From assembly GCA_016744455.1 (NCBI GenBank), contig JADGEI010000013.1, positions 27,809 to 91,808 of the forward strand: a stretch of DNA of 64,000 nucleotides, written 5' to 3'. The notes under the pieces were generated by a model. The model ran no database searches, was not told the origin of the DNA, and worked only from the letters and a program-made list of their open reading frames with translations. The DNA is from Alcanivoracaceae bacterium (GTDB lineage Bacteria > Pseudomonadota > Gammaproteobacteria > Xanthomonadales > Marinicellaceae). This document shows positions 15,360 to 47,505 of the stretch, piece after piece (the first letter of the stretch is position 1; every line of letters begins with the position of its first letter). The position numbers and the translations under genes are program-made.

Positions 15360-17744
15360 ATGAATAATTTATTGTTAATTTTATTGGTTGTGAGTAGTTG
15401 TGGTTATTCAATAGATTCGCCTCGTTTAGATTTAAATCGACACACTAACTTTCCGACCATAATCCGTGTTTATTATAAGAATCAACAACATGTTCAAAAA
15501 CTAAGCGAAATCACAGCATTATGGGAAGTTAATACAAATCAAAACTATGTTCTCATGATGGTTAATGATTATGATGAATTAAGTAAAGTACAATTGTTAG
15601 ATTTGCCAGTTCATATTGACAGTAAAAGGCAAAAGAAATATTTTTCAAAACAGCGACAATCCATAAAATCTATAACTGGGAGCCAAACAATCCCAGGTTT
15701 TAGTTGTTACTCTACAGTTGAAGGGACTTTTACCCGGATGGCTGCTATGGAAACAAATTTTCCTAATTTAGCAGAAATTATAGATATTGGAGATAGTTGG
15801 GAAAAAACCATTGATGTAAACAATGGTTATGACCTTAAAGTCATGAAAATCACCAATCAAAATAATGTAACAGATAAACCTGTTTTGTTTATGACGTCGG
15901 CTATTCACGCACGAGAATACACAACTGCTGAGCTCACTACTCGATTTGCAGAAATGTTATTAGACCAATATGAAACTAATGCAGATGTACGATGGATGCT
16001 TGATCATCAGGAAGTTCATTTACTGTTACATACCAATCCAGATGGTAGGAAAAAAGCAGAAGCAGGTCTCTTGTGGCGTAAAAACACCAATACAGCTTAC
16101 TGCACACCAACAAGCAATGATAGAGGAGCTGATTTAAATAGAAACTATCCTTTTTTTTGGGAATCAAATAATAACCAATGTGCAGCAACTTTCCCTGGTA
16201 GCACTGTGCAATCTGAGCCAGAAGTAGATTTTGTCATGAGTTACCTAAATACAATTTACGATGATAATCGTGGCCCCGGATTGAATGATAGCGCGCCATT
16301 GGATACAGCTGGTGTTTTTTTAGATATACACAGTTTTAGCCAATTGATTTTATGGCCTTGGGGGTTTACAAGTGCTCAACCACCTAACGCCGATCAATTT
16401 AAAGCCTTTGGTAAACGTGTGGCATTGTTTAATAATTATAAACCTGAGCCTGTTAGTGATTTAACCATTGCAAAGGGTGGCTCAATAGATGCTTCATATG
16501 GAGAGCTAGGTGTTGCTTCTCTAGCCTTTGAATTAGGAACGGATTTTTTTCAAGATTGCAATACATTTGAAAACAATATATTGCCTGACAATCTTAAGGC
16601 TTTACTGTATATAAGCCGAATATCTCGAACACCTTATAGTGCACCACTGGGACCTGATATAGAAGATCTCTTGTTGATTCCAAACGTTATAACTTCAGGG
16701 CAAAGCGTTTCAATTAGTGGTAGGGCAAATGATGATAGATACAATCACTCAAATGGTTCCCAAGTAGTAGAACAAGTTGATTCCGTAGATATGTATATCA
16801 ATGATCTGCCTTGGTTGCATACAAATTCACAGAGTGTTAATGCGGAAGATGGTAATTATGATTCATCGCAAGAAAGTTTTAAGCATGTCATTGATACCGA
16901 CTCATTGTCAACTGGTAAAAATCAGGTATTTGTTGTCGCAACAGATAGCAACGATAAAGAAGGAGGGGTTTTTGCAAGGTTCTTAAATGTTGTAGATCCA
17001 GTAAACGTTGGCACAATATCAGGAGTCGTGACAAACGCTGTATCAGGAAATCCAATAAGTGGTTCGCAATTGGTAGTAGAGGAGTCAATGGGTTTGAGCG
17101 ATAATTTTGGAAACTATAGTCTGTTAGTTTTTCCTTCAACATCTGAGTTGTTAATATCTGCAGATGGTTTTGTTTCTAAGACCATTACTAATGTTGAGAT
17201 TATACAACAGCAGACATCAACATTAGATATCGAATTAGAACCTTTTTGTAGTACTTTTTCTGATGATATGGAATCAGGTATTCAGCTATGGTTAGCTGAT
17301 TCCCCTTGGGCTATAGTGGATAATTCTTCAGTTTCACCAACGCATTCATGGACTGATAGCCCTAATGTTAATTATGCTGATAACATAGATATAAAACTTA
17401 CATCTGCTACTATTGATGTTTCAGGAGCAAGTAATATGGAAATTAGTTTTAATAGTTTTTGTGATACGGAATCAGGTTTTGATTTTGGTCATCTTGAAGT
17501 AAGTTTTGATGGCTCGAATTGGGATGAAGTGTTCCGTTGTGATGGCGAGTCAACTTGGAAACATATTGCGCAAAGCGTGGATATTCCTTCGAATAGCCAG
17601 TTGATGAAATTACGATTCAGATTGTCATCAGATGCTTCAGTGACAAGACCTGGTTGGGGTATTGATGATGTTAATGTAAAGGTATCAGGTCAACCCTGTC
17701 ATTTGCTCTCTGAAGATATTATTTATATAAATGGTTTTGAGTAA
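15360..17744 (+). CDS. Secreted M14 zinc carboxypeptidase with CarboxypepD_reg-like and MAM/jelly-roll-like C-terminal domains; ends in ...INGFE
   Basis: Signal/lipobox-like N-terminus MNNLLLILLVVSSCG. Zn ligands HAREYTTAE (HxxE) and FLDIHSFSQ; catalytic Glu region LAFELG. ISGVVTNAVSGNPISG... beta-sandwich. C-terminal domain with RFRLSSDASVTRPGWGIDDVNV. Confidence 0.85.
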   Translation: MNNLLLILLVVSSCGYSIDSPRLDLNRHTNFPTIIRVYYKNQQHVQKLSEITALWEVNTNQNYVLMMVNDYDELSKVQLLDLPVHIDSKRQKKYFSKQRQSIKSITGSQTIPGFSCYSTVEGTFTRMAAMETNFPNLAEIIDIGDSWEKTIDVNNGYDLKVMKITNQNNVTDKPVLFMTSAIHAREYTTAELTTRFAEMLLDQYETNADVRWMLDHQEVHLLLHTNPDGRKKAEAGLLWRKNTNTAYCTPTSNDRGADLNRNYPFFWESNNNQCAATFPGSTVQSEPEVDFVMSYLNTIYDDNRGPGLNDSAPLDTAGVFLDIHSFSQLILWPWGFTSAQPPNADQFKAFGKRVALFNNYKPEPVSDLTIAKGGSIDASYGELGVASLAFELGTDFFQDCNTFENNILPDNLKALLYISRISRTPYSAPLGPDIEDLLLIPNVITSGQSVSISGRANDDRYNHSNGSQVVEQVDSVDMYINDLPWLHTNSQSVNAEDGNYDSSQESFKHVIDTDSLSTGKNQVFVVATDSNDKEGGVFARFLNVVDPVNVGTISGVVTNAVSGNPISGSQLVVEESMGLSDNFGNYSLLVFPSTSELLISADGFVSKTITNVEIIQQQTSTLDIELEPFCSTFSDDMESGIQLWLADSPWAIVDNSSVSPTHSWTDSPNVNYADNIDIKLTSATIDVSGASNMEISFNSFCDTESGFDFGHLEVSFDGSNWDEVFRCDGESTWKHIAQSVDIPSNSQLMKLRFRLSSDASVTRPGWGIDDVNVKVSGQPCHLLSEDIIYINGFE

Positions 17745-17772
17745 ATATTATTACCCTTTATCTATTAGGGTT

Positions 17773-18102
17773 TTATAAGAGTGCTTTATCAGGGCCAGGG
17801 CAGTCCTTAAATTTACAATTATTGTTGTGGTCACGCCCAATAAATGAACCATCAGCACATTGCTTAACATCGGCGGTACATAAGACTTCTTTTTTTGGTG
17901 CCTTCGGACAAGCATTAAATTTACAATTGTTTTTCGGGTTTCTGCCAACAACTGTTCCATCGGGGCATTGTTTTGCTTCTTTCGTACAGGCTTGAGTAGT
18001 TGGTGTTTCTTTGGAATCAGTAGATGAGTCTACGACAGTTTCCTTTGAATTACAACTAACGATAAATAGCCCTACTAATAAGGTTAAACTTAGTTTTTTC
18101 AT
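17773..18102 (-). CDS. Small Cys-rich tandem-repeat lipoprotein (unknown family)
   Basis: Start chosen at MKKLSLTLLVGLFIVSC (lipobox), whose ATG overlaps the upstream GNAT stop as ATGA. Two about 34-aa repeats: CTKEAKQCPDGTVVGRNPKNNCKFNACP and CTADVKQCADGSFIGRDHNNNCKFKDCP. Confidence 0.65.
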   Translation of the reverse strand: MKKLSLTLLVGLFIVSCNSKETVVDSSTDSKETPTTQACTKEAKQCPDGTVVGRNPKNNCKFNACPKAPKKEVLCTADVKQCADGSFIGRDHNNNCKFKDCPGPDKALL

Positions 18103-18581
18103 AATGTTTTCTGCCAAAATTCTGCTTTTCCCATTATAGGATCTAATGCATAACGATTAAAGCCAAATTTTCTATACGAGTTAATGGCGATAAAATTTTT
18201 ATCTAATACTTCTAATGTTAATTTACAACAATTTCTTTCTACGGCAATGTCTTCAACCATTTGTAACATTTTGGTACTTAATCCCATACCTCTGAATTCG
18301 GTCGCAACTATTAAATCATGTATGTTTATTAGTGGTTTGCAATTAAAAGTTGAAAATCCTTCAAAGCAATTTAACAATCCGGCAGGTTGCCCTTCAACAT
18401 AAGCCAGTATACTTACTGCATCTTTACGGTTGGATAATTCATAGACAAGGTTTTGTGCAACAAAATCAGGTAAAGCTTCATTCCCTCCCATTGGGTCATT
18501 AGCATAACAGTCTAACATTTCAATAATATGCCTACCATTTTTCTTGTCATTATAATTAGCTTGTACTATTTTTATAGTCAT
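18099..18581 (-). CDS. GNAT-family N-acetyltransferase
   Basis: Start taken at MTIKIVQANY (ATG 18581, preceded by GGAGAA); the longer listed ORF is an unlikely extension. Acetyl-CoA binding region IHDLIVATEFRGMGLSTKMLQMVEDIA. Confidence 0.75.
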   Translation of the reverse strand: MTIKIVQANYNDKKNGRHIIEMLDCYANDPMGGNEALPDFVAQNLVYELSNRKDAVSILAYVEGQPAGLLNCFEGFSTFNCKPLINIHDLIVATEFRGMGLSTKMLQMVEDIAVERNCCKLTLEVLDKNFIAINSYRKFGFNRYALDPIMGKAEFWQKTL

Positions 18582-18852: not shown

Positions 18853-19080
18853 GTGATACACTATGAGAAGTACCAAGTAGAAATCTTTTTAAGTTTGCAA
18901 TCGCAACATGAACTCACCGCATTACCTACCGATGAATTAGATATTGACAATGATGGTGGTTTTTCTGAAATTTTACCGATTGACCTAGACGGAAACTCAA
19001 GAGTTTCCAAGACATTGGTAGATATAGGGCCTTATGAGCGAGTTTTTTTAGAATTGGTGTTTACTGATGGGTTTGAATGA
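18853..19080 (+). pseudogene. 3' remnant of a paralog of the 19291-20556 beta-helix gene
   Basis: Only the last about 50 codons (LPTDELDIDNDGGFSEILPIDLDGNSRVSKTLVDIGPYERVFLELVFTDGFE) align to the C-terminus of the neighbour (LPLDDFDIDNDGDFGETIPLDLDSNLRISGASVDIGAYEFQVLVFYDGFE). There is no signal peptide or beta-helix part. The 3' flanks also share GGTTTTAGGT(G/A)ACAG. Confidence 0.7.
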
Positions 19081-19227
19081 TAAATTAGGTTTGAGGTAAC
19101 TGGAAACAGGTTTTAGGTGACAGGTAAAACAATACGGGCGAGAATTATAGTCTCGATTCTGATAGTGCAAAAAAGCGTCGACTAAAGCCGATAATCCATA
19201 TGAGTATAGCTTGATAAACAGATTGTT

Positions 19228-19236
19228 TGGTATAAT
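19228..19236 (+). promoter_or_regulatory. Candidate extended -10 promoter element for the beta-helix gene
   Basis: TGGTATAAT (TGnTATAAT) 55 nt upstream of the ATG at 19291. The context is AT-rich, so chance occurrence is possible. Confidence 0.3.
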
Positions 19237-19290
19237 CAGACCTATAAGCAATTATCACTGTATAATCAAAGAAAACATAATGAGAAGATT

Positions 19291-20556
19291 ATGAAAATAA
19301 TATTGATATTGATTTTAACCAGTACTTTTGTAGTCAAAGCAAGTGTTGTATTTGTGGATAAAAACGCCACAGGCAATAATGACGGCAGCAGTTGGGCTGA
19401 TGCTGTAATCAGTATCAGCCCTGCTGTGACAATAGCAGCAAGTGGCGATGAAATACATATTGCTCAAGGAACCTATCTTGAGGGAATACAAATTGATATA
19501 ACCAAAAGCCTTAGCTTGATTGGAGGTTTTTCAACTGGTGGAGGTGCTCAAAATACGGTTCAATTTGAAACCATAATTAATGGCAATGATAGCCATAGGG
19601 TAATTAATAGTCACACCGCAGGTGGATTAACTATTGTACTGGATGGGTTAACAATCAGGCATGGGAACAGCACCACACTTGGGGGTGGGGTATTGATTGG
19701 TACCAGTATGGGAGTAAATACATTAAGCATAAACAACGTTCAAATAATGAGTAATCAAACAACTCAATATGGAGGTGGAATTTTTGTATCGAATACAAAT
19801 ACAAGTATAACTAAATCATTAATTTTTGGAAATACAGCTTCCTCAATATCTTCTGTTGATGCAAAGGGAGGAGGGATTTACTTTGAAAATAGTGATTTAA
19901 TCATAAGCAATAGCAGGATACTTGGCAATAAATCAGGTTCGTCTAACACGAACAATTCGTATGGTGCTGGAATTTATATCGGCGATCTTGCTAATGTGAA
20001 AATTACGAATAGTGTCATAAATGGTAACAATTTATCCTGTAAACAGGCTTGCAATGGCCTAGCATTTGCATCGGGAAGTGATGTTACCTTAGTAAACAGC
20101 AATGTAACTTTCAACACATATACATCTATATCTTCAGTTATAAATGGCTCAATATTTATGTCTGAAAATACGATTGAATTCTTTAACTCAATCATTTCAC
20201 ATAATAATTTTGATGATATTCATCTAGAAAATGGTGCTGTACAAGTCGTAAATAACAGCTACATTCGCTACGCAAATCCAGTAGGCAACAACAATATTGA
20301 TGCAACGGTTATTGGCTTTGATGCTGGTTTTGTAGGTTCTAATATTAGTAATTTTCATTTGTTATCAACTTCTATCCTTGTAGGTGCTGGTGATGATAGC
20401 TTATTGCCGTTGGATGATTTTGATATTGATAATGATGGTGATTTTGGTGAAACCATACCTTTAGATTTAGATAGTAATTTGAGAATTTCAGGTGCATCAG
20501 TTGATATTGGCGCTTATGAATTTCAAGTATTGGTGTTTTACGATGGGTTTGAGTGA
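19291..20556 (+). CDS. Secreted right-handed parallel beta-helix / polymorphic-membrane-protein-like repeat protein; ends in ...YDGFE
   Basis: Signal peptide MKIILILILTSTFVVKA. Repeated GGG(V/I) ... N motifs (GGGVLIG, GGGIFVSN, GGGIYFEN, GAGIYIGD) with about 22-25 aa spacing. C-terminal DIDNDGD dockerin/Ca-like segment. Confidence 0.75.
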   Translation: MKIILILILTSTFVVKASVVFVDKNATGNNDGSSWADAVISISPAVTIAASGDEIHIAQGTYLEGIQIDITKSLSLIGGFSTGGGAQNTVQFETIINGNDSHRVINSHTAGGLTIVLDGLTIRHGNSTTLGGGVLIGTSMGVNTLSINNVQIMSNQTTQYGGGIFVSNTNTSITKSLIFGNTASSISSVDAKGGGIYFENSDLIISNSRILGNKSGSSNTNNSYGAGIYIGDLANVKITNSVINGNNLSCKQACNGLAFASGSDVTLVNSNVTFNTYTSISSVINGSIFMSENTIEFFNSIISHNNFDDIHLENGAVQVVNNSYIRYANPVGNNNIDATVIGFDAGFVGSNISNFHLLSTSILVGAGDDSLLPLDDFDIDNDGDFGETIPLDLDSNLRISGASVDIGAYEFQVLVFYDGFE

Positions 20557-26603: not shown

Positions 26604-26605
26604 TT

Positions 26606-35250: not shown

Positions 35251-38001
35251 ATGAATAGAGTTCTACTAATTTTGATAGTATTTTCAAATTTGACTATGGC
35301 ACGAGTAGGTAAGCAACCACCAAGTCAAATGTACAATTTGCTAACAAAGAATCAAATGCAATCATATCAACTAAAATCAGTTGATGTTCAAGAGTTATTA
35401 ACAACCTATCAACCAAAAGACTTTGAATCCAAGCCGGTAAGGTTTGCTGTTCCTAATGAAACAACAATTAATATGAACACTCATGGAAGTTGGACTGATG
35501 TACCTGGTGGTAAAATATGGAACTTGCGGTTTCAGTCAGAAAACGCAACAGACATAAATTTTGGATTTACCAAATTTCATTTACCTAAAGGTGCAGAATT
35601 ATATTTACTCAGTTTTGCGGATGATCCGGTTTATTATGATGGGCCATATACAGCAGAAGATAATCAAAATTACAAACAATTTTGGTCAGCTCCCTTACCA
35701 GGTGGCGATGTTGCGCTTGAATTATTTGTTCCTAGTAAAGTAAATGATGAAATTGAGCTAGAGCTGACTAGAGTGTCAACAGGGTTTAGAGACGTATTTA
35801 AAAGATACAATGGTGATGGTTTGATTCCCAGGCAGGGCTCGTGTAATAATGATGTGGTATGTCCTGAAGGTGAACCATGGAGAGATGAAATTAGGTCTGT
35901 AGCTGCATACACTATGGGAGGTGCTGATACATGTACCGGTACTATGGTGATGGATGCTGATCGTAGTTTTACACCTTATTTCCTAACTGCGGCCCATTGT
36001 AATGTTACTGCAGCTAATGCTGCTACGATGGTTACTATTTGGAATTATGAATCAGTAAATTGTGGAGATTTGAGTGGTGGCTCAAGGATGGATACAGTAA
36101 GTGGTTCAATATTTAAAGCAAGGCGTGTAAATGTGGATGTTGGTTTAGTTGAACTTTCTAGTACACCGCCTGAGGATTTTGGCGTTTATTGGGCTGGTTG
36201 GGATAAGTCAGGTATGGTCCCAAATGGTAGTGTGGGTATTCACCATCCAGGCGTGGATGAAAAAGCAATTAGTTTTAACTCAGATGCATTAACCACAATT
36301 AATAGTTGTATTGGTACTGGTGGAGTAGATTCTCATTGGCGAGTTGATGATTGGGAAGATGGAACGACTGAACCTGGTTCTTCGGGTTCGGGTTTATGGG
36401 ATCCAGATACACATTTGGTTGTTGGGTTTTTATCAGGCGGAACTGCATCATGTTCAAGCATTACTAATGACTGTTATGGTAAGGTATCTGAAGCGTGGGA
36501 TGATGGAAGCGGAGCTGCGTTTAATTTGAAACCTTGGTTAGATCCAAGTAATACTGGTGTCGATACTGTGGCTGGTTCTGACCCAAATCCATTTTCGTTA
36601 ACACTTAATGATTCATCTATTCAAGTGTGTAATGCTGATACAAATGTTGGGACTACTGTAAATGTTGTTACAAATGGTGTTTTTACTAGTAGCGTAACAC
36701 TATCAACGCCAACAACCCCCGCTTTTGTAAGTAATTTTACCTTTGCGAATAACCCAATTAACACAACACCTGGTTCTACTGCTTTTACATTTAATGTCGG
36801 TGCAGGCGGTACAACTGGGAATAATATATTAACTATTCAAGGTGACGGAATGGATATGGGTGTTCCTGTATCTACAAGCGTTGATTTGAGCATCTTGTAC
36901 TCAGGTGGTACTACTTCAGCAACTACATTAACTGCACCAGCTAATAACGCTACAGATGTATCTATCTCAACAACTTTTTCTTGGGCTTCTGATCCAAACG
37001 CTACTAGTTATCGTTTGATGGTGTCAGCAGATCCGGGATTTGGCAGTTTGTTAATTGATGAAACAGTAGAAGTAACTACATTTGATGCATCTGGCTTACC
37101 AGGTGCCACTCAGCTTTATTGGAAAGTAGCTACACAATCAGCTTGTAATGGAATTGATGTTGAGTCCAATGTATTCTCCTTTTCGACAGTTGAAGTATTT
37201 TGTACAACTGTACCTGTTGCAATTCCAGACAATAATCCAAATGGTGTGAACGTTACACTTCCAGTCGCAGTTAATGGTATGTTAGACTCAATAACAGTTA
37301 GTGTTAAATCAGCTCATACATACCCTGGAGACCTAATATTCACTTTATCTCATTCTGGTACAAATGTAACATTGATGGATAGGCCTAATGGATGTTCTGT
37401 AGCTGGTGTTGATGTTGTGTTCGACGACAATAGTGGGACACCAGTTGAAGGTTCTTGTGCAGCCTCATCTCCAGGAATAGGCGGTGTAGTTGCTCCTGAA
37501 CAACCTCTATCGGCATTCTCTGGCCTGAATTTCGGAGGAGATTGGGTATTAAATGCTTCAGATAATGCGGGTGTAGATACAGGTAATATTGATGAGTTTT
37601 GTATAATACCAGTTACTGTAAATAATACTGCAGAATTAGAAGTATCAAAGCTAGCAACAATTACAACAGACAATGGCCATATAGGTGAAGCTGATTTAAA
37701 TGATGTCATTACATTTAGTGTTAGTGTTGAAAATACGGGTAATGTGACATTGGATGGTTTGGTTGTCATGGATTCAATGGAAGGTATGTTGACTTGTATG
37801 CCTACAACGTTGATGCCTGCTCAAATTGCTATGTGCACAGATTATACTTACATGGTACAACAACCGGATATTGATAATGGCGTGCCAATTACCAATACAG
37901 CTGATGCAATAATGCAAGATCCAGATATGAACAATGTTATGGGTAGCGCATCAACTCAAACAGTTGTTAATCTTGCCTTATTTAAAGATGGTTTTGAATA
38001 A
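35251..38001 (+). CDS. Secreted S1 (trypsin-fold, lysyl-endopeptidase-like) serine protease with proprotein-convertase P-domain and DUF11-like domain; ends in ...KDGFE
   Basis: Signal peptide MNRVLLILIVFSNLTMA, His motif LTAAHC, Ser motif EPGSSGSGLW. P-domain HTYPGDLIFTLSHSGTNVTLMDRPNG...FGGDWVLNASDNAGVDTGNIDEFCI. DUF11-like ITFSVSVENTGNVTLDGLVVMD. Confidence 0.85.
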   Translation: MNRVLLILIVFSNLTMARVGKQPPSQMYNLLTKNQMQSYQLKSVDVQELLTTYQPKDFESKPVRFAVPNETTINMNTHGSWTDVPGGKIWNLRFQSENATDINFGFTKFHLPKGAELYLLSFADDPVYYDGPYTAEDNQNYKQFWSAPLPGGDVALELFVPSKVNDEIELELTRVSTGFRDVFKRYNGDGLIPRQGSCNNDVVCPEGEPWRDEIRSVAAYTMGGADTCTGTMVMDADRSFTPYFLTAAHCNVTAANAATMVTIWNYESVNCGDLSGGSRMDTVSGSIFKARRVNVDVGLVELSSTPPEDFGVYWAGWDKSGMVPNGSVGIHHPGVDEKAISFNSDALTTINSCIGTGGVDSHWRVDDWEDGTTEPGSSGSGLWDPDTHLVVGFLSGGTASCSSITNDCYGKVSEAWDDGSGAAFNLKPWLDPSNTGVDTVAGSDPNPFSLTLNDSSIQVCNADTNVGTTVNVVTNGVFTSSVTLSTPTTPAFVSNFTFANNPINTTPGSTAFTFNVGAGGTTGNNILTIQGDGMDMGVPVSTSVDLSILYSGGTTSATTLTAPANNATDVSISTTFSWASDPNATSYRLMVSADPGFGSLLIDETVEVTTFDASGLPGATQLYWKVATQSACNGIDVESNVFSFSTVEVFCTTVPVAIPDNNPNGVNVTLPVAVNGMLDSITVSVKSAHTYPGDLIFTLSHSGTNVTLMDRPNGCSVAGVDVVFDDNSGTPVEGSCAASSPGIGGVVAPEQPLSAFSGLNFGGDWVLNASDNAGVDTGNIDEFCIIPVTVNNTAELEVSKLATITTDNGHIGEADLNDVITFSVSVENTGNVTLDGLVVMDSMEGMLTCMPTTLMPAQIAMCTDYTYMVQQPDIDNGVPITNTADAIMQDPDMNNVMGSASTQTVVNLALFKDGFE

Positions 38002-38028: not shown

Positions 38029-38057
38029 AAAAGCGGCTTTTTAAGGCCGCTTTTTTT
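38029..38057 (+). terminator. Rho-independent terminator after the S1 protease gene
   Basis: AAAAGCGGC-tttttaag-GCCGCTTTT followed by additional Ts. Confidence 0.75.
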
Positions 38058-38102: not shown

Positions 38103-40373
38103 ATGAAAAAAATAAAATTTATAGGTTTAATAATTTTATTTAGTATTAGTATAGGAGTTGTTAACGCTAAGAATGAGACTTGGCTTCGGTTGGAGCACCC
38201 GAACACTCAGTTGTTAAATGATTTACCTAAAAGTGCGGTCAACTATGGTAATTTTGTCTGGGTAAATGAGTCTCAAATTAGTTTCCAACATCGTGAATAT
38301 GCCCAAAATGAAGTGGTATTTTCTAACCCGTATAATTTAATTGTAGGTGATCAATCTTTTGATCCTGTTGATGAGACGCTAGAAGATACGTTGTGGTTTA
38401 ATGATTTATCATCAAATGAAAAAGGTTTCTATATAGTCCAATTTGTAGGTCCAATGAAACCTGAATGGTTAGACCAACTTAAACAACTGGGTATAAAACC
38501 TTTAAAAGCAATGGCACCATTTTCTTACATTGTTTGGGCAAATGCACAAATGATAGAACAAAGTCAGAATTTGACTACTGTACGTTGGGGAGGTTACTTC
38601 TATTCCGCTTTTCGTGTGCAATCAGCTAATAGAAATTTATCACCTGATATTACTCCTACAATGGCACTTATTTACCATGAAGACCAAGAAGTGACACTTA
38701 ATGCTATGAAAAATATTGGTGCATACGCAATTACTGTACAAAAAATTGACAGTAATTTTGACGCAGTTACATTTAAAATGGCTGGAAATCTCTATTCTGA
38801 ATTATCGCGTCTTTCAGGATTATTAACTGTACAACAAATACCTCAGGATGCAGGTAGCAGAGGAGAGATGAGTCAGCAATCAATTGTGGGAAATTATGAC
38901 ATGAACAACACCATTTTTCCGGGTTATCAATCGTGGTTAGACGCTGCTGGATTGGATGGAACAGGTGTTACAGTTGGCGTGGTTGACGGTGGTATTTTTG
39001 AAAATCACCCTGATTTAACTGATAATATGATTGCCTGTACAGGTCTTGGCCCAAGTTGCGGGAATTCTACAGATAGTCATGGAACACATGTTGCTGGTGC
39101 AATAGCAGGCTCTGCAGCTTCTGGAACTACAGATTCTAATGGTTTTCTACGTGGTCAAGGTGTTGCTCCAGGTACTTCTATTGTTGAACAACTATATAGC
39201 CCTCTTTTAGGTGGTGGCCCAGGTGGGATGGTTGCTGGTGGTATGTTATCAATCTACAAAGATTCATCAGTTAGTGGTGCGATGTTAACCAATAACTCTT
39301 GGGGGCCAACAGGAACTCCACAAGGGTATGATATTCCAACTATGGAAATTGATATGATCAGTCGTGATGCAGATCCAGATACAATTGGGGCACAACCAGT
39401 TCTTGCAGTTTGGTCCATTATGAATGGTAATGGAGACAGTGGTGGAAACTGTAGCCCAAGTTCACTAGGGTCTCCTGATGAAGCTAAAAATTTATTTGCT
39501 GTTGGTTCTACCAAAATGCAAACAGGCAGCGGTAATCAAATCGCAGAAATTTTCGATGTTTCTGCAAATAGTGCACATGGACCAGCTTGCGATGGCAGGC
39601 AAGTGCCACATATAGTGGCTCCAGGCTGTTCTACAGATTCACCTGATAGCGCAACTGGTTATGGATTTAAATGTGGGACGTCAATGGCTTCTCCGGTTAT
39701 TTCAGGATCTGTGTCGCTATTTTGGCAATGGTATAAGAGTACATTTTTGATTGATCCAAGCCCAGCTATGGTAAAAGCAACATTTACGGCGGTAGCAAAA
39801 AACTTGAGTGGTTTTGAAGATGCTGATGGTGGGATTATGGGAAATGCACCTGATAGAAAGCAAGGTTGGGGGCGTGTTGATCTTGATAGTGTGATTAATC
39901 CTGATACTAACGTTTTGTTTTATGATCAACAATTTATTATGACTGCAACAGGTCAACAATGGAGTCAAGAGTTTGAAGCTGATAATGCTACCAAGCCCGT
40001 ACGGCTAATGTTGGTGTGGACCGATGCGCCAGGTGCGGGGTTAGGTGGTACAACGCCTGCATGGATAAATGATCTTGATTTATCTCTGGCAACAATGGCT
40101 GATACTTATTTGGGTAATGTATTTGGTGTAGATGGTTTCTCAGCATCAGGAGGAGTAGTTGATAGCATGAACAATATGGAAGGGTTGTTTGTTAAAGCAA
40201 ACCAACATAACGGAAATAGCTTCACTGTTTCTGTGTTGGCAGCAAATATTGCTGCAGATGCTTTGAATCCACATATTCCAGGTACACCTGCTCAAGATTT
40301 TGCCTTAGTCTGTTATAATTGTAAAGAATATGTAGATGTCGGCTTAATATATAAAGATAGTTTTGAAAATTGA
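38103..40373 (+). CDS. Secreted S8 subtilisin-family serine protease; ends in ...KDSFEN
   Basis: Start taken at MKKIKFIGLIILFSISIGVVNA (the listed ORF starts at an upstream TTG, 38082). Catalytic triad motifs VGVVDGG, HGTHVAG, GTSMASP. N-terminal propeptide-like region and a C-terminal beta domain (LVWTDAPG...NDLDLSL...NNMEG). Confidence 0.85.
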   Translation: MKKIKFIGLIILFSISIGVVNAKNETWLRLEHPNTQLLNDLPKSAVNYGNFVWVNESQISFQHREYAQNEVVFSNPYNLIVGDQSFDPVDETLEDTLWFNDLSSNEKGFYIVQFVGPMKPEWLDQLKQLGIKPLKAMAPFSYIVWANAQMIEQSQNLTTVRWGGYFYSAFRVQSANRNLSPDITPTMALIYHEDQEVTLNAMKNIGAYAITVQKIDSNFDAVTFKMAGNLYSELSRLSGLLTVQQIPQDAGSRGEMSQQSIVGNYDMNNTIFPGYQSWLDAAGLDGTGVTVGVVDGGIFENHPDLTDNMIACTGLGPSCGNSTDSHGTHVAGAIAGSAASGTTDSNGFLRGQGVAPGTSIVEQLYSPLLGGGPGGMVAGGMLSIYKDSSVSGAMLTNNSWGPTGTPQGYDIPTMEIDMISRDADPDTIGAQPVLAVWSIMNGNGDSGGNCSPSSLGSPDEAKNLFAVGSTKMQTGSGNQIAEIFDVSANSAHGPACDGRQVPHIVAPGCSTDSPDSATGYGFKCGTSMASPVISGSVSLFWQWYKSTFLIDPSPAMVKATFTAVAKNLSGFEDADGGIMGNAPDRKQGWGRVDLDSVINPDTNVLFYDQQFIMTATGQQWSQEFEADNATKPVRLMLVWTDAPGAGLGGTTPAWINDLDLSLATMADTYLGNVFGVDGFSASGGVVDSMNNMEGLFVKANQHNGNSFTVSVLAANIAADALNPHIPGTPAQDFALVCYNCKEYVDVGLIYKDSFEN

Positions 40374-40565: not shown

Positions 40566-41660
40566 TTAAAATATCAGTAATGTAACCCTCTCTGCTACTA
40601 TGACTGTACTATTGGTTTCAATATTATACATGCGACATATGGTAACCTGTGTGCCAGCACCACCACCTTGAGTACCTTTGTTGCAAGCACCTGCTATGGG
40701 TGTGGAGCCATTAAATTCTACTGTAGTTTGGTAATATAAATCATCATAATCAAAAGGCAAGTTAACACTGCAGCTTCCGAAGAACACTCCATTCGAAACA
40801 GTTATTTCTGAATTGTTTATATTATTAAAATATTTTTGTCTTACGGTACCTGCATTTCCACATGAAAACTCGATTCCTGCTTTGGCAAAACCATAACTGT
40901 CCATTTGAGTATGTTTTGCATTTTTTTGTACCAATAAATCATCTGTTATTGTTGTTGTATTATTTAATTCTACTTCTCCCGAAACGTAAAGTCCATTACT
41001 TGGGGGAGGTGCAACATTGACATTTGATCCCACAGAAACACCACCGTTGCTAGCTACTTGAAGTTTTGGCTGGCCATTGATATTTGTGGAAAATGGTGCA
41101 GTACCTGCTGGAGATGATATAGCAAGTGAAAAAGCAGTAGATGATCCGCCGCCAATCCCAATATGGTCATCATAGAAAGCACCATTACTATCACTTTGCC
41201 AAACAGTACTTGTATCATCATTTCCAGCAGTCCATTCTGAGCCATTGAACTTTAAGACTTGACCAGTTAAGGCGCCATTAGCCGCTAAAAAATCTGCCTG
41301 TATTGCATAAGGTGTGGCATTGATACGTTGTTTTGGGAATAAAGCAGTGTAACTTCCTGTCGTGCTTCCTTCCCTTACTTGAATTTTTAAGAAAACATCG
41401 TCTCCCATAAAGGTTGCATCACCAAAATCTAATTCTACAGTGAAAATACCTTTAGTCACTTCTATGTCTTCAAGAATAATTGCTGAGCCTATGATTCCGC
41501 CACCTGTTTCTTGTGACCATGCTTCAAACTTTAAATCATAGATGCCATTGACTGGTGTGTCGTTTAACTCTAACTTGCCTTGGTAACTAAAACGAGATCC
41601 AACCGGGCTGGAATTAACAGTCATAGATAAAAATGTGCTTAGTAATAGTATAAATTTCAT
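40566..41660 (-). CDS. Secreted protein of unknown function with a tail-fibre-like N-terminal domain
   Basis: Signal peptide MKFILLLSTFLSMTVNS. FSYQGKLELNDTPVNGIYDLKFEAW ... PKQRINATPYAIQA is a pattern I associate with tail-fibre-like surface proteins. AGGAG RBS 10 nt after the upstream stop. Confidence 0.55.
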   Translation of the reverse strand: MKFILLLSTFLSMTVNSSPVGSRFSYQGKLELNDTPVNGIYDLKFEAWSQETGGGIIGSAIILEDIEVTKGIFTVELDFGDATFMGDDVFLKIQVREGSTTGSYTALFPKQRINATPYAIQADFLAANGALTGQVLKFNGSEWTAGNDDTSTVWQSDSNGAFYDDHIGIGGGSSTAFSLAISSPAGTAPFSTNINGQPKLQVASNGGVSVGSNVNVAPPPSNGLYVSGEVELNNTTTITDDLLVQKNAKHTQMDSYGFAKAGIEFSCGNAGTVRQKYFNNINNSEITVSNGVFFGSCSVNLPFDYDDLYYQTTVEFNGSTPIAGACNKGTQGGGAGTQVTICRMYNIETNSTVIVAERVTLLIF

Positions 41661-41670
41661 GTACTTCTCC

Positions 41671-41955
41671 TTATTGTTCGAAACTATTTTTAAAAATCAA
41701 TTCTTGACTAGTGGAAGGTGTATGCCAGAAACCAGAGTTTATTGTGTAGTCACCACCTATTGATTTTGCCGTTACAACTTGTGCAATACTACCATTAATT
41801 TTATAGTTTCCACTTGTGCTCTTTCCACCTCCATTAGCTACACTATATTCTGAGATAGTGTATGCATTTCCTGCATAGGATGTTTGATAGAATAGACTTA
41901 TCATTATTACCATTAGTGTTTCTGAACAAATAAAATTTGATTTTTTCCAATGCAT
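41671..41955 (-). CDS. 94-aa secreted miniprotein; ends in ...FKNSFEQ
   Basis: Hydrophobic N-terminus (LMVIMISLFYQTSYAG). The mature part has two NY-x-I-N-(G)S repeats ending in SGFW, then the shared C-terminal motif. It is the first gene of a two-gene operon. Confidence 0.55.
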   Translation of the reverse strand: MHWKKSNFICSETLMVIMISLFYQTSYAGNAYTISEYSVANGGGKSTSGNYKINGSIAQVVTAKSIGGDYTINSGFWHTPSTSQELIFKNSFEQ

Positions 41956-42073: not shown

Positions 42074-44431
42074 ATGCAAAATAATAAGAAATCGACAATT
42101 TATTCATTTGATGGTTATCAAGTCTTCCCTTTACAAAGAGAAGTGTATAAAAAGGGTGAAATTGATAAAATTACTATTAGTAAAAAAAGTTTTGATTTAT
42201 TAATGTTATTAATCAAAAGAAATGGGCATGTCGTAACAAAACAAGAAATGATAAAATCTGTGTGGCCTAATCAAATTGTTACTGATGCCGCATTAAGTAA
42301 GCAAATAACACGTTTACGAAATGATTTATTCAACGGAAATTCAGGTAATCAGGCACTTATTGAAACTGTTCGTGGTGTGGGTGTAAGGTTGGTTCCAGTC
42401 GTTCAAGAAAGCACGCCAAAGAAAAACTCAAAATTTACCAGCAACTTTTTTAAATTTTGTATACTTATTGGATTGATACTCATTGCTATGGTTTTATATA
42501 AGTATTCAAATCAAAAAAAATCAAGTGAAGATTTTACCTCTAATCAAAAAACTTTGGCTTTAAAAAAGCCTGTTAACCTGGCATTGGTTTCAAATAACAA
42601 CTCAGAAAATTGGTTAACTATTGGCGGGGTAAATTATATTCTTGAACGACTGCAAAATCATTCAGAAATAAATACATTACCTCCAAATTCAAAATGGTTT
42701 GAAAATCAAAACCAAAACCATAAAACAGTTGCAATTCAAATGTCAAAATTTGATGGAATAGATTATGTGTTAGAAATTGAAAACTTTAAAAAAGGCAGTA
42801 GTTATTTTGTTGATATAATTTTAAGGCAGCATGATGGTTTGCTAGCAAAAAAAACTATTCATGCAAAAAGCCTATCTGTTATATTTGACAAAATTGATGA
42901 TTGGGTCACCAAGGAAATTAATATAAAGTCTCAATTAAAAGAGGGGGGATTTTCAAATTATCAGACGACAGACTATGTGCTTGAGACCTATTTAAGAGGG
43001 AAGGAAGTTGCCATCCATGAAAGTTTTGCAAAGGCTTCACAATTTTATCAAACTGCGACAAATCAAGACAAGAGATTTTTACCTGGGTGGATTGGATTAG
43101 CAGAAGTTGAAGCAAAAGTGGGGAACTATAAAAAAGCCTTAGCATTATTACAAATCATAGAATCTTCAAGTAATTTTGATCACAATAGCAAAGATGATAT
43201 GTTGGTATTGAAAGCAAAGTATTTGGTAGGGTTAAATCAACTAGAAGAAGCAGGATTTTTACTTGATAACGTTATGAATAACTCAACGCCAATCTCTAGT
43301 TATTCTGCATTAATAGATGCTATTACTATAAAAATACAAATTCATTTTAACACGGGGAAAATTGGCGAGCAAACTGTCAAACTATTAGACAAACAAAGTA
43401 TGTTGCTCAAAAAACATAAACCAGATCCTTATCTCATAGCACTATCAAAATATAATTTAGCAGGTGTGTATCATCAATTAGGGAGAATTGATGAGGCGAT
43501 TGAGGCAATAAAGGCATGCATAAAAATTTATACAAAAACCAATAACTCTCGTGGAATTGTTGTAAGCAATAGTTTGTTAGCTCGAATTTACAAAGATAAT
43601 GGAGAATCTGGAAAAGCATTGTTGATTTTAGAGAACTTAGATGGTCTCTTTGAGGAAATTGATGGCATCAGTGAACAACAAATTTATCTTCAATACAAAA
43701 CAGAAAACCAGATATATTATGGATTGAAGGAAGAAGCTATTGAAACAATAAACAAAATAAAGGCATTAGACCTTGAAAGCGAAAGCTTAGAGTTGAAAAT
43801 AGTAGCTCTGAGTTTAAGTTTTGAATTGAATCAAATTCATAAAAATTATCAACAGTCAAAGGTAAATATTGATCAAATGAAGGTGCTTATTGAAAATGAG
43901 CAAAATGATTACCCTCCTATTTATAATGATTTAATACTGACCTACGATATGTTTATTGCAGCATTAACTGAAAAGCCGGAAATGGCTAAACTAGTAATGA
44001 AACAAAATTTAGAATCTAATCCAAATATATCTTCGTTATTTGAAAAAGAAGTCAGGATGATTAATGCAATAATTTTGGTCAAGGAAAACAAGAAAATTTT
44101 AGCGTTAGAAATCTATAAAAACTTATTAAATGAATACATAAATACGCATAAAATCCAAGATGCTTTATATTACGCAGGTTACCCAATGTTGGATTTGTTA
44201 TGGGAAAGTAATAAAACCGAATATTCTCAAACAATGAACTACCTGTCTGAAATTGCTACTTTTAGCTATCCAATTAATAAATACAAAGCTCAATATTTGG
44301 CCTTTAAAATGGATTATGTAAATGCATACTTGATGATGGTTGATTTAAAAAGCAAAGCCAATCAATTTTGGACTGCTTCAGATCAGTTGTTATTGGAGCA
44401 TTATCAGCAAAAATCTATAGTTGATGATTAG
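42074..44431 (+). CDS. ToxR/CadC-like membrane-anchored transcriptional regulator (OmpR-type winged helix, TM segment, large TPR-like periplasmic domain)
   Basis: N-terminal trans_reg_C pattern (FDLLMLLIKRNGHVVTKQEMIKSVWPNQIVTDAALSKQITRLRNDL...IETVRGVGVRL), TM FFKFCILIGLILIAMVLY, then about 640 aa helical repeat region. Confidence 0.75.
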   Translation: MQNNKKSTIYSFDGYQVFPLQREVYKKGEIDKITISKKSFDLLMLLIKRNGHVVTKQEMIKSVWPNQIVTDAALSKQITRLRNDLFNGNSGNQALIETVRGVGVRLVPVVQESTPKKNSKFTSNFFKFCILIGLILIAMVLYKYSNQKKSSEDFTSNQKTLALKKPVNLALVSNNNSENWLTIGGVNYILERLQNHSEINTLPPNSKWFENQNQNHKTVAIQMSKFDGIDYVLEIENFKKGSSYFVDIILRQHDGLLAKKTIHAKSLSVIFDKIDDWVTKEINIKSQLKEGGFSNYQTTDYVLETYLRGKEVAIHESFAKASQFYQTATNQDKRFLPGWIGLAEVEAKVGNYKKALALLQIIESSSNFDHNSKDDMLVLKAKYLVGLNQLEEAGFLLDNVMNNSTPISSYSALIDAITIKIQIHFNTGKIGEQTVKLLDKQSMLLKKHKPDPYLIALSKYNLAGVYHQLGRIDEAIEAIKACIKIYTKTNNSRGIVVSNSLLARIYKDNGESGKALLILENLDGLFEEIDGISEQQIYLQYKTENQIYYGLKEEAIETINKIKALDLESESLELKIVALSLSFELNQIHKNYQQSKVNIDQMKVLIENEQNDYPPIYNDLILTYDMFIAALTEKPEMAKLVMKQNLESNPNISSLFEKEVRMINAIILVKENKKILALEIYKNLLNEYINTHKIQDALYYAGYPMLDLLWESNKTEYSQTMNYLSEIATFSYPINKYKAQYLAFKMDYVNAYLMMVDLKSKANQFWTASDQLLLEHYQQKSIVDD

Positions 44432-44510: not shown

Positions 44511-44534
44511 AAAAGGCTTCCGAAGAAGCCTTTT
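44511..44534. terminator. Bidirectional terminator between the regulator (+) and the 983-aa gene (-)
   Basis: AAAAGGCTTC-cgaa-GAAGCCTTTT, a perfect 10-bp stem flanked by A/T. Confidence 0.75.
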
Positions 44535-44553
44535 AATCCAATTAATAAATGTT

Positions 44554-47505
44554 TTACTCAAAGCTATTTTTAAATACAATATCTGCAGCTAAGCACATTC
44601 CAAATAAACCAGAATTGGAAATAATAATATCATCAACTTTCCAATCTCCACCACCAACTGAGGCATCTGATCCTGATCTCCATCGTACTTGTACAAGTTG
44701 AGAATCATAAGCAGCTAATGGGACTGTTACTTCTGTGTAAGTCGCAAGTGTTCCTGTCCATGCAGGTCTTCCAGAAATTGGATTAGGACTTGATTGAAGT
44801 GATCCATTATAATTACCATTGGTCATTAATGGGCCTAAATCTATCCAGTTTAATCCATTGTCTATACTTATTTCAAGTACACCACCATCCCATGTATTTT
44901 CGAATGCAAATTTGTGATGAAAACTAAGTACTGTTGTCGCAGTTGGAGAGAACTGTCTTGTAATAACAGATTTATCTGTCGTGTGATCAACATCTGTTGA
45001 GACAAAAGCATTTGTTGTACCTGTAGTGTTATCATCACCTGATTCAATGCGCCAGATTCCAGTTTCTACGATAGATTCTATATGTGACCAGCCATTGGCT
45101 ACAGCAGCAGCAGTATCGGCATAACCATCGAGGTTTTCATCAAAAGGTAATAAGGTTAATGGTCCAGTTGGGAAAACAGAAGTAATTACAGTGTTATTAT
45201 CTGATAGATTGTTGTCTAAATCCTCAGATCTGACTATATAATAATAGTCGGTATCAGACTGTAAAAGTCCATCGGTGTCATTATAAGAAAGAGAGTTAAC
45301 ACCACTAATGATAAGAGTACTCGGATCTGGAGTAAAGGCACTATTGGTAGAACGGTAAACTGAATACCTTATATCACCAGCACCATTTGGACACTGTGAA
45401 GAGGCACTTGGCCAATTAACAGTTAAAGAACAACTTGCATTTGCATCATTGGTTGCAGAAGCCACTCCGCTGAAAGTAGGTGCAAGTGTACACAATCCTG
45501 TTGCTGTTGCAGAGACTTCATTTGAGTCAGTTGTTAGGCAAGAACCACCATCAGAAGCTTTAACAATATAGTAATAGGTGGTACCATCGGATACTGTTGG
45601 GTCATCATAAGTATAACTACCTGATCCACCTACACCCATAGATGTATCACTTACAACTGCAATTTGCGTATAGCCAGTTCCCATTGTTGTTGATCGGTAG
45701 ACTTTGTATTCTGTAATTTCAGCAGTAGTTGAATCATTCCAACTGACTTGAATATTGTTATCTACATTTGCGACAGCTCCAGTTACATTGATAACATCAA
45801 GAGATAACAAACAACCACATTGTTCAAACTTGAAAGACCCTACGCGAGTATTCCAATTTGATGTGGGGTTATATTGAGCGGTATACCAAAATGTACATTC
45901 ATCCACAGGGTCAACGTTTAATGACGTATAGTCGCCGTATCGGCTTGAACTATTTGATGCACTGCCTTCAATAATGGAATTTTCACCTCTTGGCATGGTG
46001 CCTGGAGGGTCATCTTTTAATCGCCCTGCATATCTCATACCAGCATAGATAGACGAACTTGATGTGTTGTAACCTAGTGCAATATTTCCATCGCCATCCA
46101 TCGCTGCTGATGCCATCCAACGGTGCACACCATCGTTTAATGTATATGTTCCTTCATCTTTCAATGTCCATCCTCCATTAGTCGTTGCAGCGGCTCTTTC
46201 TAGTTGCCACCATCTAACACCATGATAATCATTGCCATCAACATCTGTTACCATATTGCCCACAAGATATTGTTTGTTATCAATAGTTCTGTGTTGGACG
46301 CGCCACATCAATGGTTGTTTGAGTGGAAATAAATTAGTGGCACCATCTGGTTGTGGTACCGACAAGTCACCAAATCCTGTGCCACCTAAATGCGTATCAA
46401 ATTCACTGGTTTCAATGTTGATTGGACCTGTTATGGCACTGTTTGATGGAGTATCAAAGTCAGTTGAAAATTCCCAAATTTCTAATACATCAGGTAATGC
46501 CCCACTATCATGGTAATCACCATCTCTATGGCGCATAAATATACCAGGTGAACCTGAAGGAGGTAGCGTTTCACCATCCGCATCTGCTGGCATCATGTGT
46601 TGAAAACCAAATCCAGGTAATCCTACTGTTGTAAATACTTGATAACCACGAGCAGTTGCACCATTTAACATGTTAGTTCTGTCAAAAGCATATTGTCTAT
46701 TTGATTCATTAGCCCCAACATAATAAGCATCTTGCCAAACACCAAATTTTGGATAGTCTGGTAATCCGCCCGTGGCTGAAGTAAATTCATAGATATACCA
46801 TGTGCTACTTGTTGTTCCTAAAGGGTCGCTTGTTTTAGAAATGTAAACACAAAAGGATGTGCTTGTAAACTCGGTTAGAACCCAACGCCCTTTTGGCTGC
46901 CCTGCGCCGTTATCTGCAAATTGGTCAAATAAAACCACCGGGTCTCCTCTACCACCTCCACAGCCTGTCCCAGAACCACTGGCTATGGTGTCCATAACAA
47001 ATTGACTTGCTATTGAACCGTCGGATTTATTTAGTATGATCACTCCAGAACTGCTGCTGTTATTGATTGACTGAATATAATAATCATTACCAACATCACC
47101 ATTGGTGTCTGAAGGATTGACTCCAGAAAAACCAAGCCCATCAACATTAACAATAGTATCATCAAATGCACTTACTGCTAGAGTTGATGCTGAATCTATT
47201 TGTTTTTGAGCTAATGGATCAAACCCAAAACCCCTATCAGCTGCTTCTGGTCTTACCCAATCTTTCGGGCGATTAAATCTGAAAGGTATTTCTTTTATAG
47301 GGTCGCCGGGTTGCCATACCTTTGGTGCTGAAAATGTTCTTAAGTTTACTGTGACTGTTGCGGGTATAACTTCTTCACCAACAAAGTCAGCTCCTACCCG
47401 CGTAATGGGCTCTGCATTTAATAATGACGTTGCCATTACTGATGCTGTAAGTATTAATTTTTTATATTTCAATGTATGCCTCTCTCTATAGTTTTTCAAT
47501 TTCAA
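44554..47505 (-). CDS. 983-aa secreted multidomain protein (unassigned N-terminal about 560-aa domain, 2 FN3-like domains, MAM/jelly-roll-like domain); ends in ...FKNSFE
   Basis: Signal peptide KKLILTASVMATSLLNA. FN3-like segments (VSWNDSTTAEITEYKVYRS...TTYYYIVKA; YSVYRSTNSAFTP...TDYYYIVRS). The C-terminal domain VRWRSGSDASVGGGDWKVDD resembles the C-terminal domain of the M14 enzyme. Confidence 0.7.
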   Translation of the reverse strand: MKLKNYRERHTLKYKKLILTASVMATSLLNAEPITRVGADFVGEEVIPATVTVNLRTFSAPKVWQPGDPIKEIPFRFNRPKDWVRPEAADRGFGFDPLAQKQIDSASTLAVSAFDDTIVNVDGLGFSGVNPSDTNGDVGNDYYIQSINNSSSSGVIILNKSDGSIASQFVMDTIASGSGTGCGGGRGDPVVLFDQFADNGAGQPKGRWVLTEFTSTSFCVYISKTSDPLGTTSSTWYIYEFTSATGGLPDYPKFGVWQDAYYVGANESNRQYAFDRTNMLNGATARGYQVFTTVGLPGFGFQHMMPADADGETLPPSGSPGIFMRHRDGDYHDSGALPDVLEIWEFSTDFDTPSNSAITGPINIETSEFDTHLGGTGFGDLSVPQPDGATNLFPLKQPLMWRVQHRTIDNKQYLVGNMVTDVDGNDYHGVRWWQLERAAATTNGGWTLKDEGTYTLNDGVHRWMASAAMDGDGNIALGYNTSSSSIYAGMRYAGRLKDDPPGTMPRGENSIIEGSASNSSSRYGDYTSLNVDPVDECTFWYTAQYNPTSNWNTRVGSFKFEQCGCLLSLDVINVTGAVANVDNNIQVSWNDSTTAEITEYKVYRSTTMGTGYTQIAVVSDTSMGVGGSGSYTYDDPTVSDGTTYYYIVKASDGGSCLTTDSNEVSATATGLCTLAPTFSGVASATNDANASCSLTVNWPSASSQCPNGAGDIRYSVYRSTNSAFTPDPSTLIISGVNSLSYNDTDGLLQSDTDYYYIVRSEDLDNNLSDNNTVITSVFPTGPLTLLPFDENLDGYADTAAAVANGWSHIESIVETGIWRIESGDDNTTGTTNAFVSTDVDHTTDKSVITRQFSPTATTVLSFHHKFAFENTWDGGVLEISIDNGLNWIDLGPLMTNGNYNGSLQSSPNPISGRPAWTGTLATYTEVTVPLAAYDSQLVQVRWRSGSDASVGGGDWKVDDIIISNSGLFGMCLAADIVFKNSFE

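Follow-up and report, generated by a model that had tools for sequence, protein, structure and literature searches.

The stretch of DNA analysed here, a window of 64 kb on contig JADGEI010000013.1 from a bacterium of the Marinicellaceae, holds seven open reading frames (ORFs) that close, directly ahead of the stop codon, with nearly the same short peptide. We describe this C-terminal tail, its spread across genomes, and its relation to known sorting systems. The consensus of the tail is [LVI]-[IL]-F-x-[DN]-[GS]-F-[ED] with 0-5 further residues; it is often preceded by D or N, and in some families there is a Cys nearby. The tail is real, specific to the C-terminus, widespread in and largely restricted to the Lysobacterales, and borne by a subset of signal-peptide proteins.

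Seven genes with a common C-terminal tail

The first carrier (15360..17744, plus strand) is an M14 carboxypeptidase with CarboxypepD_reg and InhA-like MAM domains, assigned by Pfam and by its translation, and it ends in DIIYINGFE (tail at 17718-17741). Next on the same strand are a 3' remnant of a choice-of-anchor-Q paralogue that has no signal peptide (18853..19080; LVFTDGFE, 19054-19077) and a right-handed beta-helix protein with a choice-of-anchor Q domain (19291..20556; LVFYDGFE, 20530-20553), where the NF041518 match spans residues 350-412 and the tail residues 413-421. Further along, again on the plus strand, lie a trypsin-like S1 protease with Trypsin_2, P_proprotein (P-domain), and DUF7507 (35251..38001; ALFKDGFE, 37975-37998) and an S8 subtilase (38103..40373; LIYKDSFEN, 40344-40370). 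The minus strand encodes a 94-aa signal-peptide miniprotein (41671..41955; LIFKNSFEQ, 41674-41700), whose gene leads a pair completed by a 364-aa ORF at 40566-41660, and a protein of 983 aa whose C-terminal domain is MAM/Reelin-B-like (44554..47505; IVFKNSFE, 44557-44580). An earlier note, made from the sequence without database searches, had read the same seven C-termini and much the same domains; the translations agree with it, as do the Pfam and NCBIfam matches, with Trypsin_2 falling below Pfam's cut-off.

A six-frame regular-expression search of the window with [LIVMA]x[FYW]x[DN][GSA]FE returns exactly seven matches. They sit at the tail coordinates given above, stopping one residue earlier in the subtilase (40344-40367, plus) and in the miniprotein (41677-41700, minus). 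All seven lie 0-1 residue ahead of a stop codon, and none is internal in any frame of the 64 kb, as the earlier note had said of its own reading. The sole near-miss is VTVFDDSFEH at 24553, within a TPR/hydroxylase ORF that has no signal peptide. By a rough composition estimate, about 0.2 matches would be expected by chance in the roughly 128,000 six-frame positions, with no position favoured. Signal-peptide-like N-termini are present on 6/6 intact carriers (five by a crude test, the S1 protease by eye) versus about 10/34 of the other genes in the window, which bears out the Sec-type signal peptides previously reported for these six.

The claim that the seven ORFs are unrelated goes too far. 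The remnant and the beta-helix protein are paralogues, a MAM-like domain just ahead of the tail is common to the M14 and 983-aa proteins, and the S1 protease and the 983-aa protein form one BLAST cluster; still, the tail is preceded by at least five different domains in the window. The remnant is recognized by its translation and by upstream stops. Its tail is preserved, as is its choice-of-anchor-Q end, and its 3' flank resembles that of the intact paralogue at 19291-20556; together with the region 19081-19290, its sequence indicates a recent tandem duplication with subsequent loss of the 5' part.

A shared ending could in principle be produced at the DNA level, by a repeat, a terminator-associated sequence, or a gene-calling error, and the clustering of the carriers in 32 kb is the only feature that speaks for such an artefact. 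The codons speak against it so strongly that we regard it as refuted. They vary synonymously among the copies (GGT/GGG/AGT/AGC, GAA/GAG, TTT/TTC), the stop codons vary as well, and the DNA 3' of the stops is unrelated except in the paralogues at 19077 and 20553; the tail is therefore not a DNA repeat, and because the codons differ between copies, selection acts on the peptide. In addition, the tail is kept across genomes of very different G+C content. A strong intrinsic terminator with an 11-bp stem lies past the S1 gene at 38029-38054, and a GC hairpin with a T-run lies downstream of the 983-aa gene, so these are true gene ends.

Some further features of individual carriers are recorded here. 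In the gene pair at 40566-41955 (minus strand), the 94-aa miniprotein is followed, 10 nt on, by the 364-aa secreted protein starting ...FSYQGKLELNDTPVNGIYDLKFEAW. Besides its tail, the miniprotein carries S-x-NY-x-[IV]-N-[GS] repeats, and it has a weak match to the pilus protein PamT of the candidate phyla radiation (E 4e-5); no Pfam family matches either member of the pair. A homologous miniprotein with its downstream gene occurs in a metagenome-assembled genome (MAG) of Marinicella (locus L052, 2319-3584), where the tail of the miniprotein is ...DIIFKDGFE. The signal peptide of the M14 carrier (window 15360-15410, plus strand), MNNLLLILLVVSSC|GYS, fits a lipobox. Its Cys is not conserved in the orthologue consensus, and lipidation of this protein may be peculiar to this genome or the fit a coincidence.

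Conservation and distribution in the Lysobacterales

Full-length orthologues of the M14 protein number about 75 (40-59% identity), and all of them bear the tail; their sources are Marinicella litoralis, sediminis, meishanensis, marina, and W31, Wenzhouxiangellaceae, and numerous MAGs. They end in C-x7-[LVI]-[IL]-F-x-[DN]-[GSDN]-F-[ED] plus 0-4 residues. In an alignment of 81 proteins at 39-59% identity, 76 match the motif, and these hold I, L, or V at position -7 in 76/76, F at -6 in 68/76, D or N at -4 in 64/76, F at -2 in 74/76, and E or D at -1 in 74/76; identity per column averages 53% over the full alignment. No residue follows the motif in 48 of these orthologues, one does in 18, and 2-4 do in 10. 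Homologues of the beta-helix protein in Marinicella, at 35-39% identity, end in ...LIFADGFEW, ...LIFRDGFD, ...LIFADGFD, and ...LIFKDGFDITE. Judged by these alignments, the tail appears to be conserved in orthologues as strongly as the catalytic residues and to be under purifying selection.

To follow the tail across genomes, we scanned bacteria and archaea, each species represented by one genome, for [LIVMF][LIVMF]FxDGFE directly ahead of a TAA or TGA stop. The scan gave at least 120 matches, and about 140 would be expected by chance for the whole genome collection under a rough uniform composition. The matches listed include the ends of long ORFs, at least 73 further carriers of roughly 180-1,650 aa, some running off their contigs, and nearly all of these belong to Lysobacterales or to unclassified gammaproteobacterial MAGs. 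Carrier taxa among the matches listed are Marinicella, Dokdonella, Chiayiivirga, Tahibacter, Aquimonas, Pseudofulvimonas, and Rudaea, along with Rhodanobacteraceae, Lysobacteraceae, Wenzhouxiangellaceae, and MAGs named "Lysobacterales bacterium"; Xanthomonas, Stenotrophomonas, and Lysobacter are not among them. At least three of the listed matches fall in the complete Marinicella genome NZ_CP171822.1. Matches listed from other phyla end ORFs of 4-123 aa, with four exceptions, and we attribute those in short ORFs to chance. The four exceptions, from two haloarchaea, one Rhodopirellula, and one "Ca. Angelobacter", were likewise set aside as chance. NCBI taxonomy places Marinicella in the Lysobacterales, family Marinicellaceae; the closest homologues of two window carriers come from Marinicella species and MAGs, and the housekeeping genes around the carriers of the window are gammaproteobacterial (PbpC, LpxL, EtfAB, 2-oxoacid:ferredoxin oxidoreductase, HtpG, and Ffh).

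The listed long-ORF carriers (at least 73) match at least 60 Pfam families of the kinds usually met in proteins that are secreted or sit at the surface, including Beta_helix, Calx-beta, Exo_endo_phos, FG-GAP, DUF7452, ThuA, GSDH, cadherin-like, M36, choice-of-anchor I, M14, S8, and phytase-like families. Among the matches listed, 48/60 complete carriers pass the crude signal-peptide test, and several more do so by eye. Signal-peptide proteins without the tail adjoin carriers, among them an M28 peptidase, a trypsin, and an Endonuclease_1 protein; hence only part of the exported proteins are marked by the tail.

Eight further variant tails were supplied by flanking ORFs, on which the search pattern had made no selection: ...IFKNGFEIIEE, ...IFRDSYE, ...LFSDSFELPVLR, ...IFINGFE, ...IFTDAFE, ...VFSNGFE, ...IFADGLE, and similar. 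Additional tails were met in other neighbourhoods, at roughly one extra per 60 kb of flank. As a rough extrapolation, limited by the clustering of carriers, this would correspond to tens of tails per genome. No internal copy of the tail occurs in the flanking ORFs, and there is only one tandem end, ...DLIFKNGFESDIIFKDGFE. A Marinicella protein (locus L035, 2653-4968) closes with two tandem copies of the tail, ...PLPDLIFKNGFESDIIFKDGFE.

An identical short frame, ...HHRPILMFSDGFE, also came up in assemblies of Streptomyces, Micromonospora, Flavobacterium, and a "Bacillus" MAG, where it lies on small contigs, three of them 7,682 bp long to the base (loci L029, L033, L042, L053, L077, L088, L106, and L121). 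This frame looks like shared contaminant or vector sequence and not like biology.

Relatives of the tail and modules in its place

The M14 protein's own MAM domain begins with CSTFSDDMESGIQLW, and the N-terminal strand of MAM/LamG/Reelin-B-type domains shares with the tail the pattern hF-x-D-G/D-F/M-E. In sequence, the Lysobacterales tail resembles a MAM/jelly-roll domain's first strand used alone: where a domain start would be followed by some 170-300 residues, the tail is followed by the stop codon.

A longer relative of the tail exists as well. Three distant choice-of-anchor-Q proteins end in ...LFxDGFExG[DN]TxxWSxxV..., and a profile search with the long stretch (doubled tail) found 18 gene fragments of 36-73 aa. 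The long motif lies at the C-terminus or within about 10 residues of it in 18/18 of these fragments, most of which end in hF[SEA]DGFE[SAT]G[DN]T[ST]xWSxxVP, and the sequence before it is MAM, CHRD, M8, DUF11, or beta-helix. An exhaustive hidden Markov model (HMM) search for the long motif returned 3,544 cluster representatives at E <= 1e-3. Among the 150 listed of these 3,544, internal copies recur every 170-300 residues or so, with the last about 170-195 residues from the end, and orphan copies stand 5-6 residues from the C-terminus after M36, S8+MAM, CAP, or BNR architectures. The internal copies mark the start of a MAM/Reelin-B-like jelly-roll domain. The 20-residue form hFxDGFE[SAT]G[DN]T[ST]xWSxxVP-COOH thus resembles the short tail in occupying the extreme C-terminus after unrelated domains (M36, S8+MAM, CAP, CHRD, and DUF11); the Lysobacterales tail differs in stopping after F-E, without the SG...W...VP half. 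Intermediates such as ...GFDVVP, ...SFEAMP, and ...GFESAQP bridge the two forms. The 20-residue tail stands after unrelated domains in many metagenomic proteins (P0130-P0147 and P0278-P0388).

Could the tail then be a mere leftover of lost C-terminal jelly-roll domains, now functionless? FxDGFEsGdxsxW does occur internally at the start of MAM/Reelin-B-like domains of about 170-300 aa, repeated in large proteins, and the endings ...GFDVVP and ...SFEAMP look like deletions of the long ...WSxxVP. A neutral leftover, however, would decay, whereas both the tail and the position of the stop are kept in about 75 orthologues at 40-59% identity, and the tail is found in many unrelated families across an order. 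An origin from a domain start is compatible with a present function, and we consider a functionless remnant very unlikely.

The resemblance to a jelly-roll strand also suggests a structural role, in which the tail would act in cis as a beta-strand or plug that stabilizes each last domain, with no part in sorting. In its favour are the first-strand pattern, shared with the start of the M14 MAM domain, and the place of the tail in two carriers, after a MAM-like domain and seven residues past a conserved Cys. Models made with AlphaFold2 (AF2) point the other way. For the M14 protein (81-sequence alignment; mean pLDDT 85), the MAM-like domain at 630-777 is confidently predicted, and the tail has a pLDDT of 60 at residues 781-790 and of 48 at 791-794 with no secondary structure; for the beta-helix protein (40-sequence alignment; mean pLDDT 85.7), residues 413-421 fall below 50. 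Across both carriers the tails score 29-60 and show no strand pairing, even with 81 sequences for the M14 protein. In these models of two unrelated carriers, the tail stays outside the fold that precedes it, and a peptide that is conserved yet unpacked is what would be expected of a motif read in trans. Since at least five unrelated folds come before the tail in the window and carriers elsewhere span at least 60 Pfam families, and since it never stands between domains in these lineages, we judge a structural cap to be quite unlikely.

The position of the tail is one that other C-terminal modules fill in homologous proteins. The choice-of-anchor Q domain family takes its name from its place ahead of C-terminal anchors that vary. 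Its homologues end in C-terminal domains (CTDs) of type IX secretion (T9SS; PF18962), in dockerin-like D-x-D-G repeats, in Chloroflexi-type ...YLPLVLRN tails, in the long form of the motif, and, in Marinicella, in the short tail. In distant M14 homologues (40-44% identity), the tail is replaced by dockerin-like modules ending in PPGPSG..., by dockerins (PF00404), or by tails of the ...YLYLPVIxR type (YLPxV-type), and in one by a hydrophobic tail of the transmembrane (TM) type; most of these homologues retain M14 with CarboxypepD_reg and/or MAM domains. From these comparisons, the tail appears positionally interchangeable with known sorting or docking modules.

Two other endings came to light among the homologues. 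One is another short tail without a TM segment, ...[FY]LPL[VI]xR/K-x(0-3), in proteins partly annotated as Chloroflexi (Anaerolineae and Promineifilaceae). The other, in a group whose named members are MAGs of Gammaproteobacteria/Pseudomonadota, is a dockerin-like module followed by ...PPGPSGxxxP. Proteins with LPL-type or PPGPSG tails are P0017, P0026, P0046, P0060, P0072, P0074, P0085, P0094, P0104, and P0241-P0266.

A candidate localisation tag and its neighbourhood

In reviews of sorting signals (PMC3237569 among them), the only designs described are the tripartite motif-TM-basic ones and the T9SS CTD, and the hallmarks given for such signals are a suffix on some family members, always together with a signal peptide, and restriction to a lineage (PMC3237569). 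The general features of the Haft type are found here: the tail is a C-terminal suffix on many otherwise unrelated signal-peptide proteins and is lineage-restricted. Like the tripartite signals (PEP-CTERM/exosortase, GlyGly-CTERM/rhombosortase, MYXO-CTERM/myxosortase, IPTL-CTERM, and LPXTG/sortase), it stands at the extreme C-terminus of several proteins per sampled genome, on carriers with an N-terminal signal peptide, on selected members of homologous families, and in a specific lineage. The cargo is also alike: nucleases, trypsin-like and InhA/M36-type peptidases, and choice-of-anchor domains. GlyGly-CTERM is carried by extracellular nucleases, trypsin-like proteases, and InhA-like peptidases (PMC3237569), and the tail's cargo classes (extracellular nuclease, trypsin-like protease, and InhA/M36-type peptidase) coincide with these. 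Unlike the tripartite signals, the tail has no TM segment, with 0-1 residues past the motif in the window, 0-4 in the 76 M14 orthologues, and 0-5 overall, and no basic cluster, the carriers ending in E, D, EN, EQ, and similar. The inner membrane therefore cannot hold it, nor can an enzyme acting within the membrane cut it. No HMM of the TIGR04174, TIGR02595, or TIGR03501 type matches a carrier, and the adjacent giant protein, which matches TIGR04174, serves as a positive control.

Other C-terminal signals show partial likenesses. Dockerins occupy the same C-terminal position in distant M14 homologues and choice-of-anchor-Q proteins, and they dock non-covalently to a partner with no membrane anchor, the mode that we favour for the tail; they are calcium-binding, duplicated EF-hand-like folds of about 60-70 residues (PF00404), whereas the tail has eight residues and no calcium-binding pattern, and no window carrier matches PF00404. 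The T9SS CTD is likewise a TM-less C-terminal signal on Sec-exported cargo, and stands in this position in Bacteroidota homologues of the beta-helix carrier. It is, however, a folded beta-sandwich of 70-100 residues (PF18962/TIGR04183), which the 8-9-residue tail does not match, and the tailed taxa are Gammaproteobacteria. The beta-signal of outer-membrane proteins shares a C-terminal place and alternating hydrophobic and aromatic residues; it ends in an aromatic residue and belongs to beta-barrels, whereas the tail ends in E, D, N, or Q, can be trailed by up to five residues, and is found on soluble multidomain enzymes and adhesins. Type I secretion differs in that the carriers have Sec-type signal peptides; no RTX-type family in Pfam or NCBIfam matches them, and the ABC-transporter matches in neighbouring ORFs are generic paralogues. 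Thus the distinctions drawn in the earlier note, from exosortase-type signals, from the beta-signal, and from the T9SS CTD, hold up under these comparisons.

That note had also failed to recognize the tail as a named signal, and the databases concur: no model in Pfam or NCBIfam release 20 matches the short or the 20-residue tail, even at E <= 10. A 12-residue tail HMM tops out at 18 bits (E ~1e3) against a database of 5.8 billion proteins, and no relevant description was found in the literature searched with motif strings and sorting-signal terms. With eight residues, no TM segment, and no folded domain, the tail has an architecture that lacks the defining features of every known family, and the tag is apparently undescribed.

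We favour, with moderate confidence, the reading that the tail is a C-terminal localisation tag recognized in trans. The earlier proposal of a sorting, secretion, or docking tag gains comparative support from conservation in orthologues, C-terminal spread through an order, at least 60 Pfam families, and positional equivalence with known modules, with the function inferred. Judging by their signal peptides, carriers would cross the inner membrane via Sec, and the flexible, exposed tail would be recognized in the periplasm or at the outer membrane by a lineage-specific partner, which would decide between export, retention, and docking at the cell surface. Given that its sequence is that of a first MAM/LamG-type jelly-roll strand, the tail would most likely bind by beta-strand augmentation or complementation. 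Non-covalent docking is favoured because of this first-strand character, replacement by dockerin-like modules, tolerance of extra residues, and lack of a strictly conserved cleavage residue.

Several points weigh against this reading. Among the described sorting signals of Gram-negative bacteria, we know of no precedent for an eight-residue signal with no membrane anchor, and the analogy may mislead. An all-versus-all BLAST of 1,204 ORFs from the carrier loci and the window revealed no cognate gene or recurrent envelope protein. Position -4 is H, T, or S in 12/76 M14 orthologues, and 0-5 residues may trail the motif; this speaks against strictness, whether of a cleavage site or in how the C-terminal carboxylate is recognized. 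Cleavage with transpeptidation (as by PorU or sortase) or an outer-membrane export signal may nonetheless be the function in place of docking. We also considered an Asx-specific transpeptidase (legumain/butelase-like) acting on [DN]-G-F, which the residues at -4 weaken.

The tail could instead be a processing or quality-control tag, read by a periplasmic protease or PDZ domain (Prc/Ctp, DegP/Q, or the GspC PDZ of type II secretion) and setting degradation, activation, or hand-over and not anchoring. Closeness to a free C-terminus would suit readers of C-terminal peptides, and several carriers are proteases, one of them a carboxypeptidase. However, known PDZ and Prc ligands end in hydrophobic residues (YxF for DegS, LAA in ssrA tags), whereas the tail has an acidic terminal residue and 0-5 variable trailing residues. 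Many carriers are adhesin-like repeat proteins and not enzymes, and homologues have docking or sorting modules in this position. We think such a role unlikely.

A broader and more speculative extension of the localisation-tag reading, which strikes us as doubtful, would unite the 8-residue and 20-residue tails in one anchor-less sorting or docking class. In it, one or more free MAM/LamG strands would complement a receptor at the surface or outer membrane and so dock exported enzymes and adhesins there, in the manner of a tag/catcher or dockerin-like pair of natural origin, with the machinery co-distributed in the Lysobacterales. The giant IPTL-CTERM protein next to the M14 gene was considered as the jelly-roll receptor and rejected: it has only SdrD_B/DUF11 repeats, with no MAM or LamG domain.

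LPXTG, PEP-CTERM, GlyGly-CTERM, MYXO-CTERM, and the T9SS CTD each led to a dedicated machine, and the short ones described are of motif-TM-basic design. A TM-less tag of eight residues, carried by several proteins per sampled genome throughout a gammaproteobacterial order, would, if true, imply that recognition is built on another design and takes place in the periplasm or at the outer membrane. The Lysobacterales include relatives of plant pathogens, predatory Lysobacter, and abundant marine Marinicella. The tail offers a simple sequence rule to predict a defined part of what is secreted or displayed at the surface, as well as a ready query for phylogenetic profiling toward the partner. It is possibly also a very small transferable tag for surface display.

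The giant surface protein (3,273 aa; 5398-15219, plus strand) lies directly upstream of the M14 carrier; it starts with DUF11, contains 14 or more SdrD B-like repeats, and carries IPTL-CTERM (TIGR04174). With this protein beside tailed genes, the genome has two or more distinct C-terminal signals in use next to each other. Recurrent tail-less neighbours of carriers fall into three groups: pairs of an extracytoplasmic-function sigma factor (PF07638) and a Ser/Thr-kinase-TPR protein, at 5-6 loci and again in M. litoralis; CadC-like regulators with a winged helix-turn-helix and TPR, at four loci including 42074-44431 (plus strand) in the window; and generic ABC paralogues. Regulator-bearing loci are L009, L016, L067, L069, L079, L084, L126, and L130. 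The recurring regulators hint at dedicated transcriptional control of the tagged secretome.

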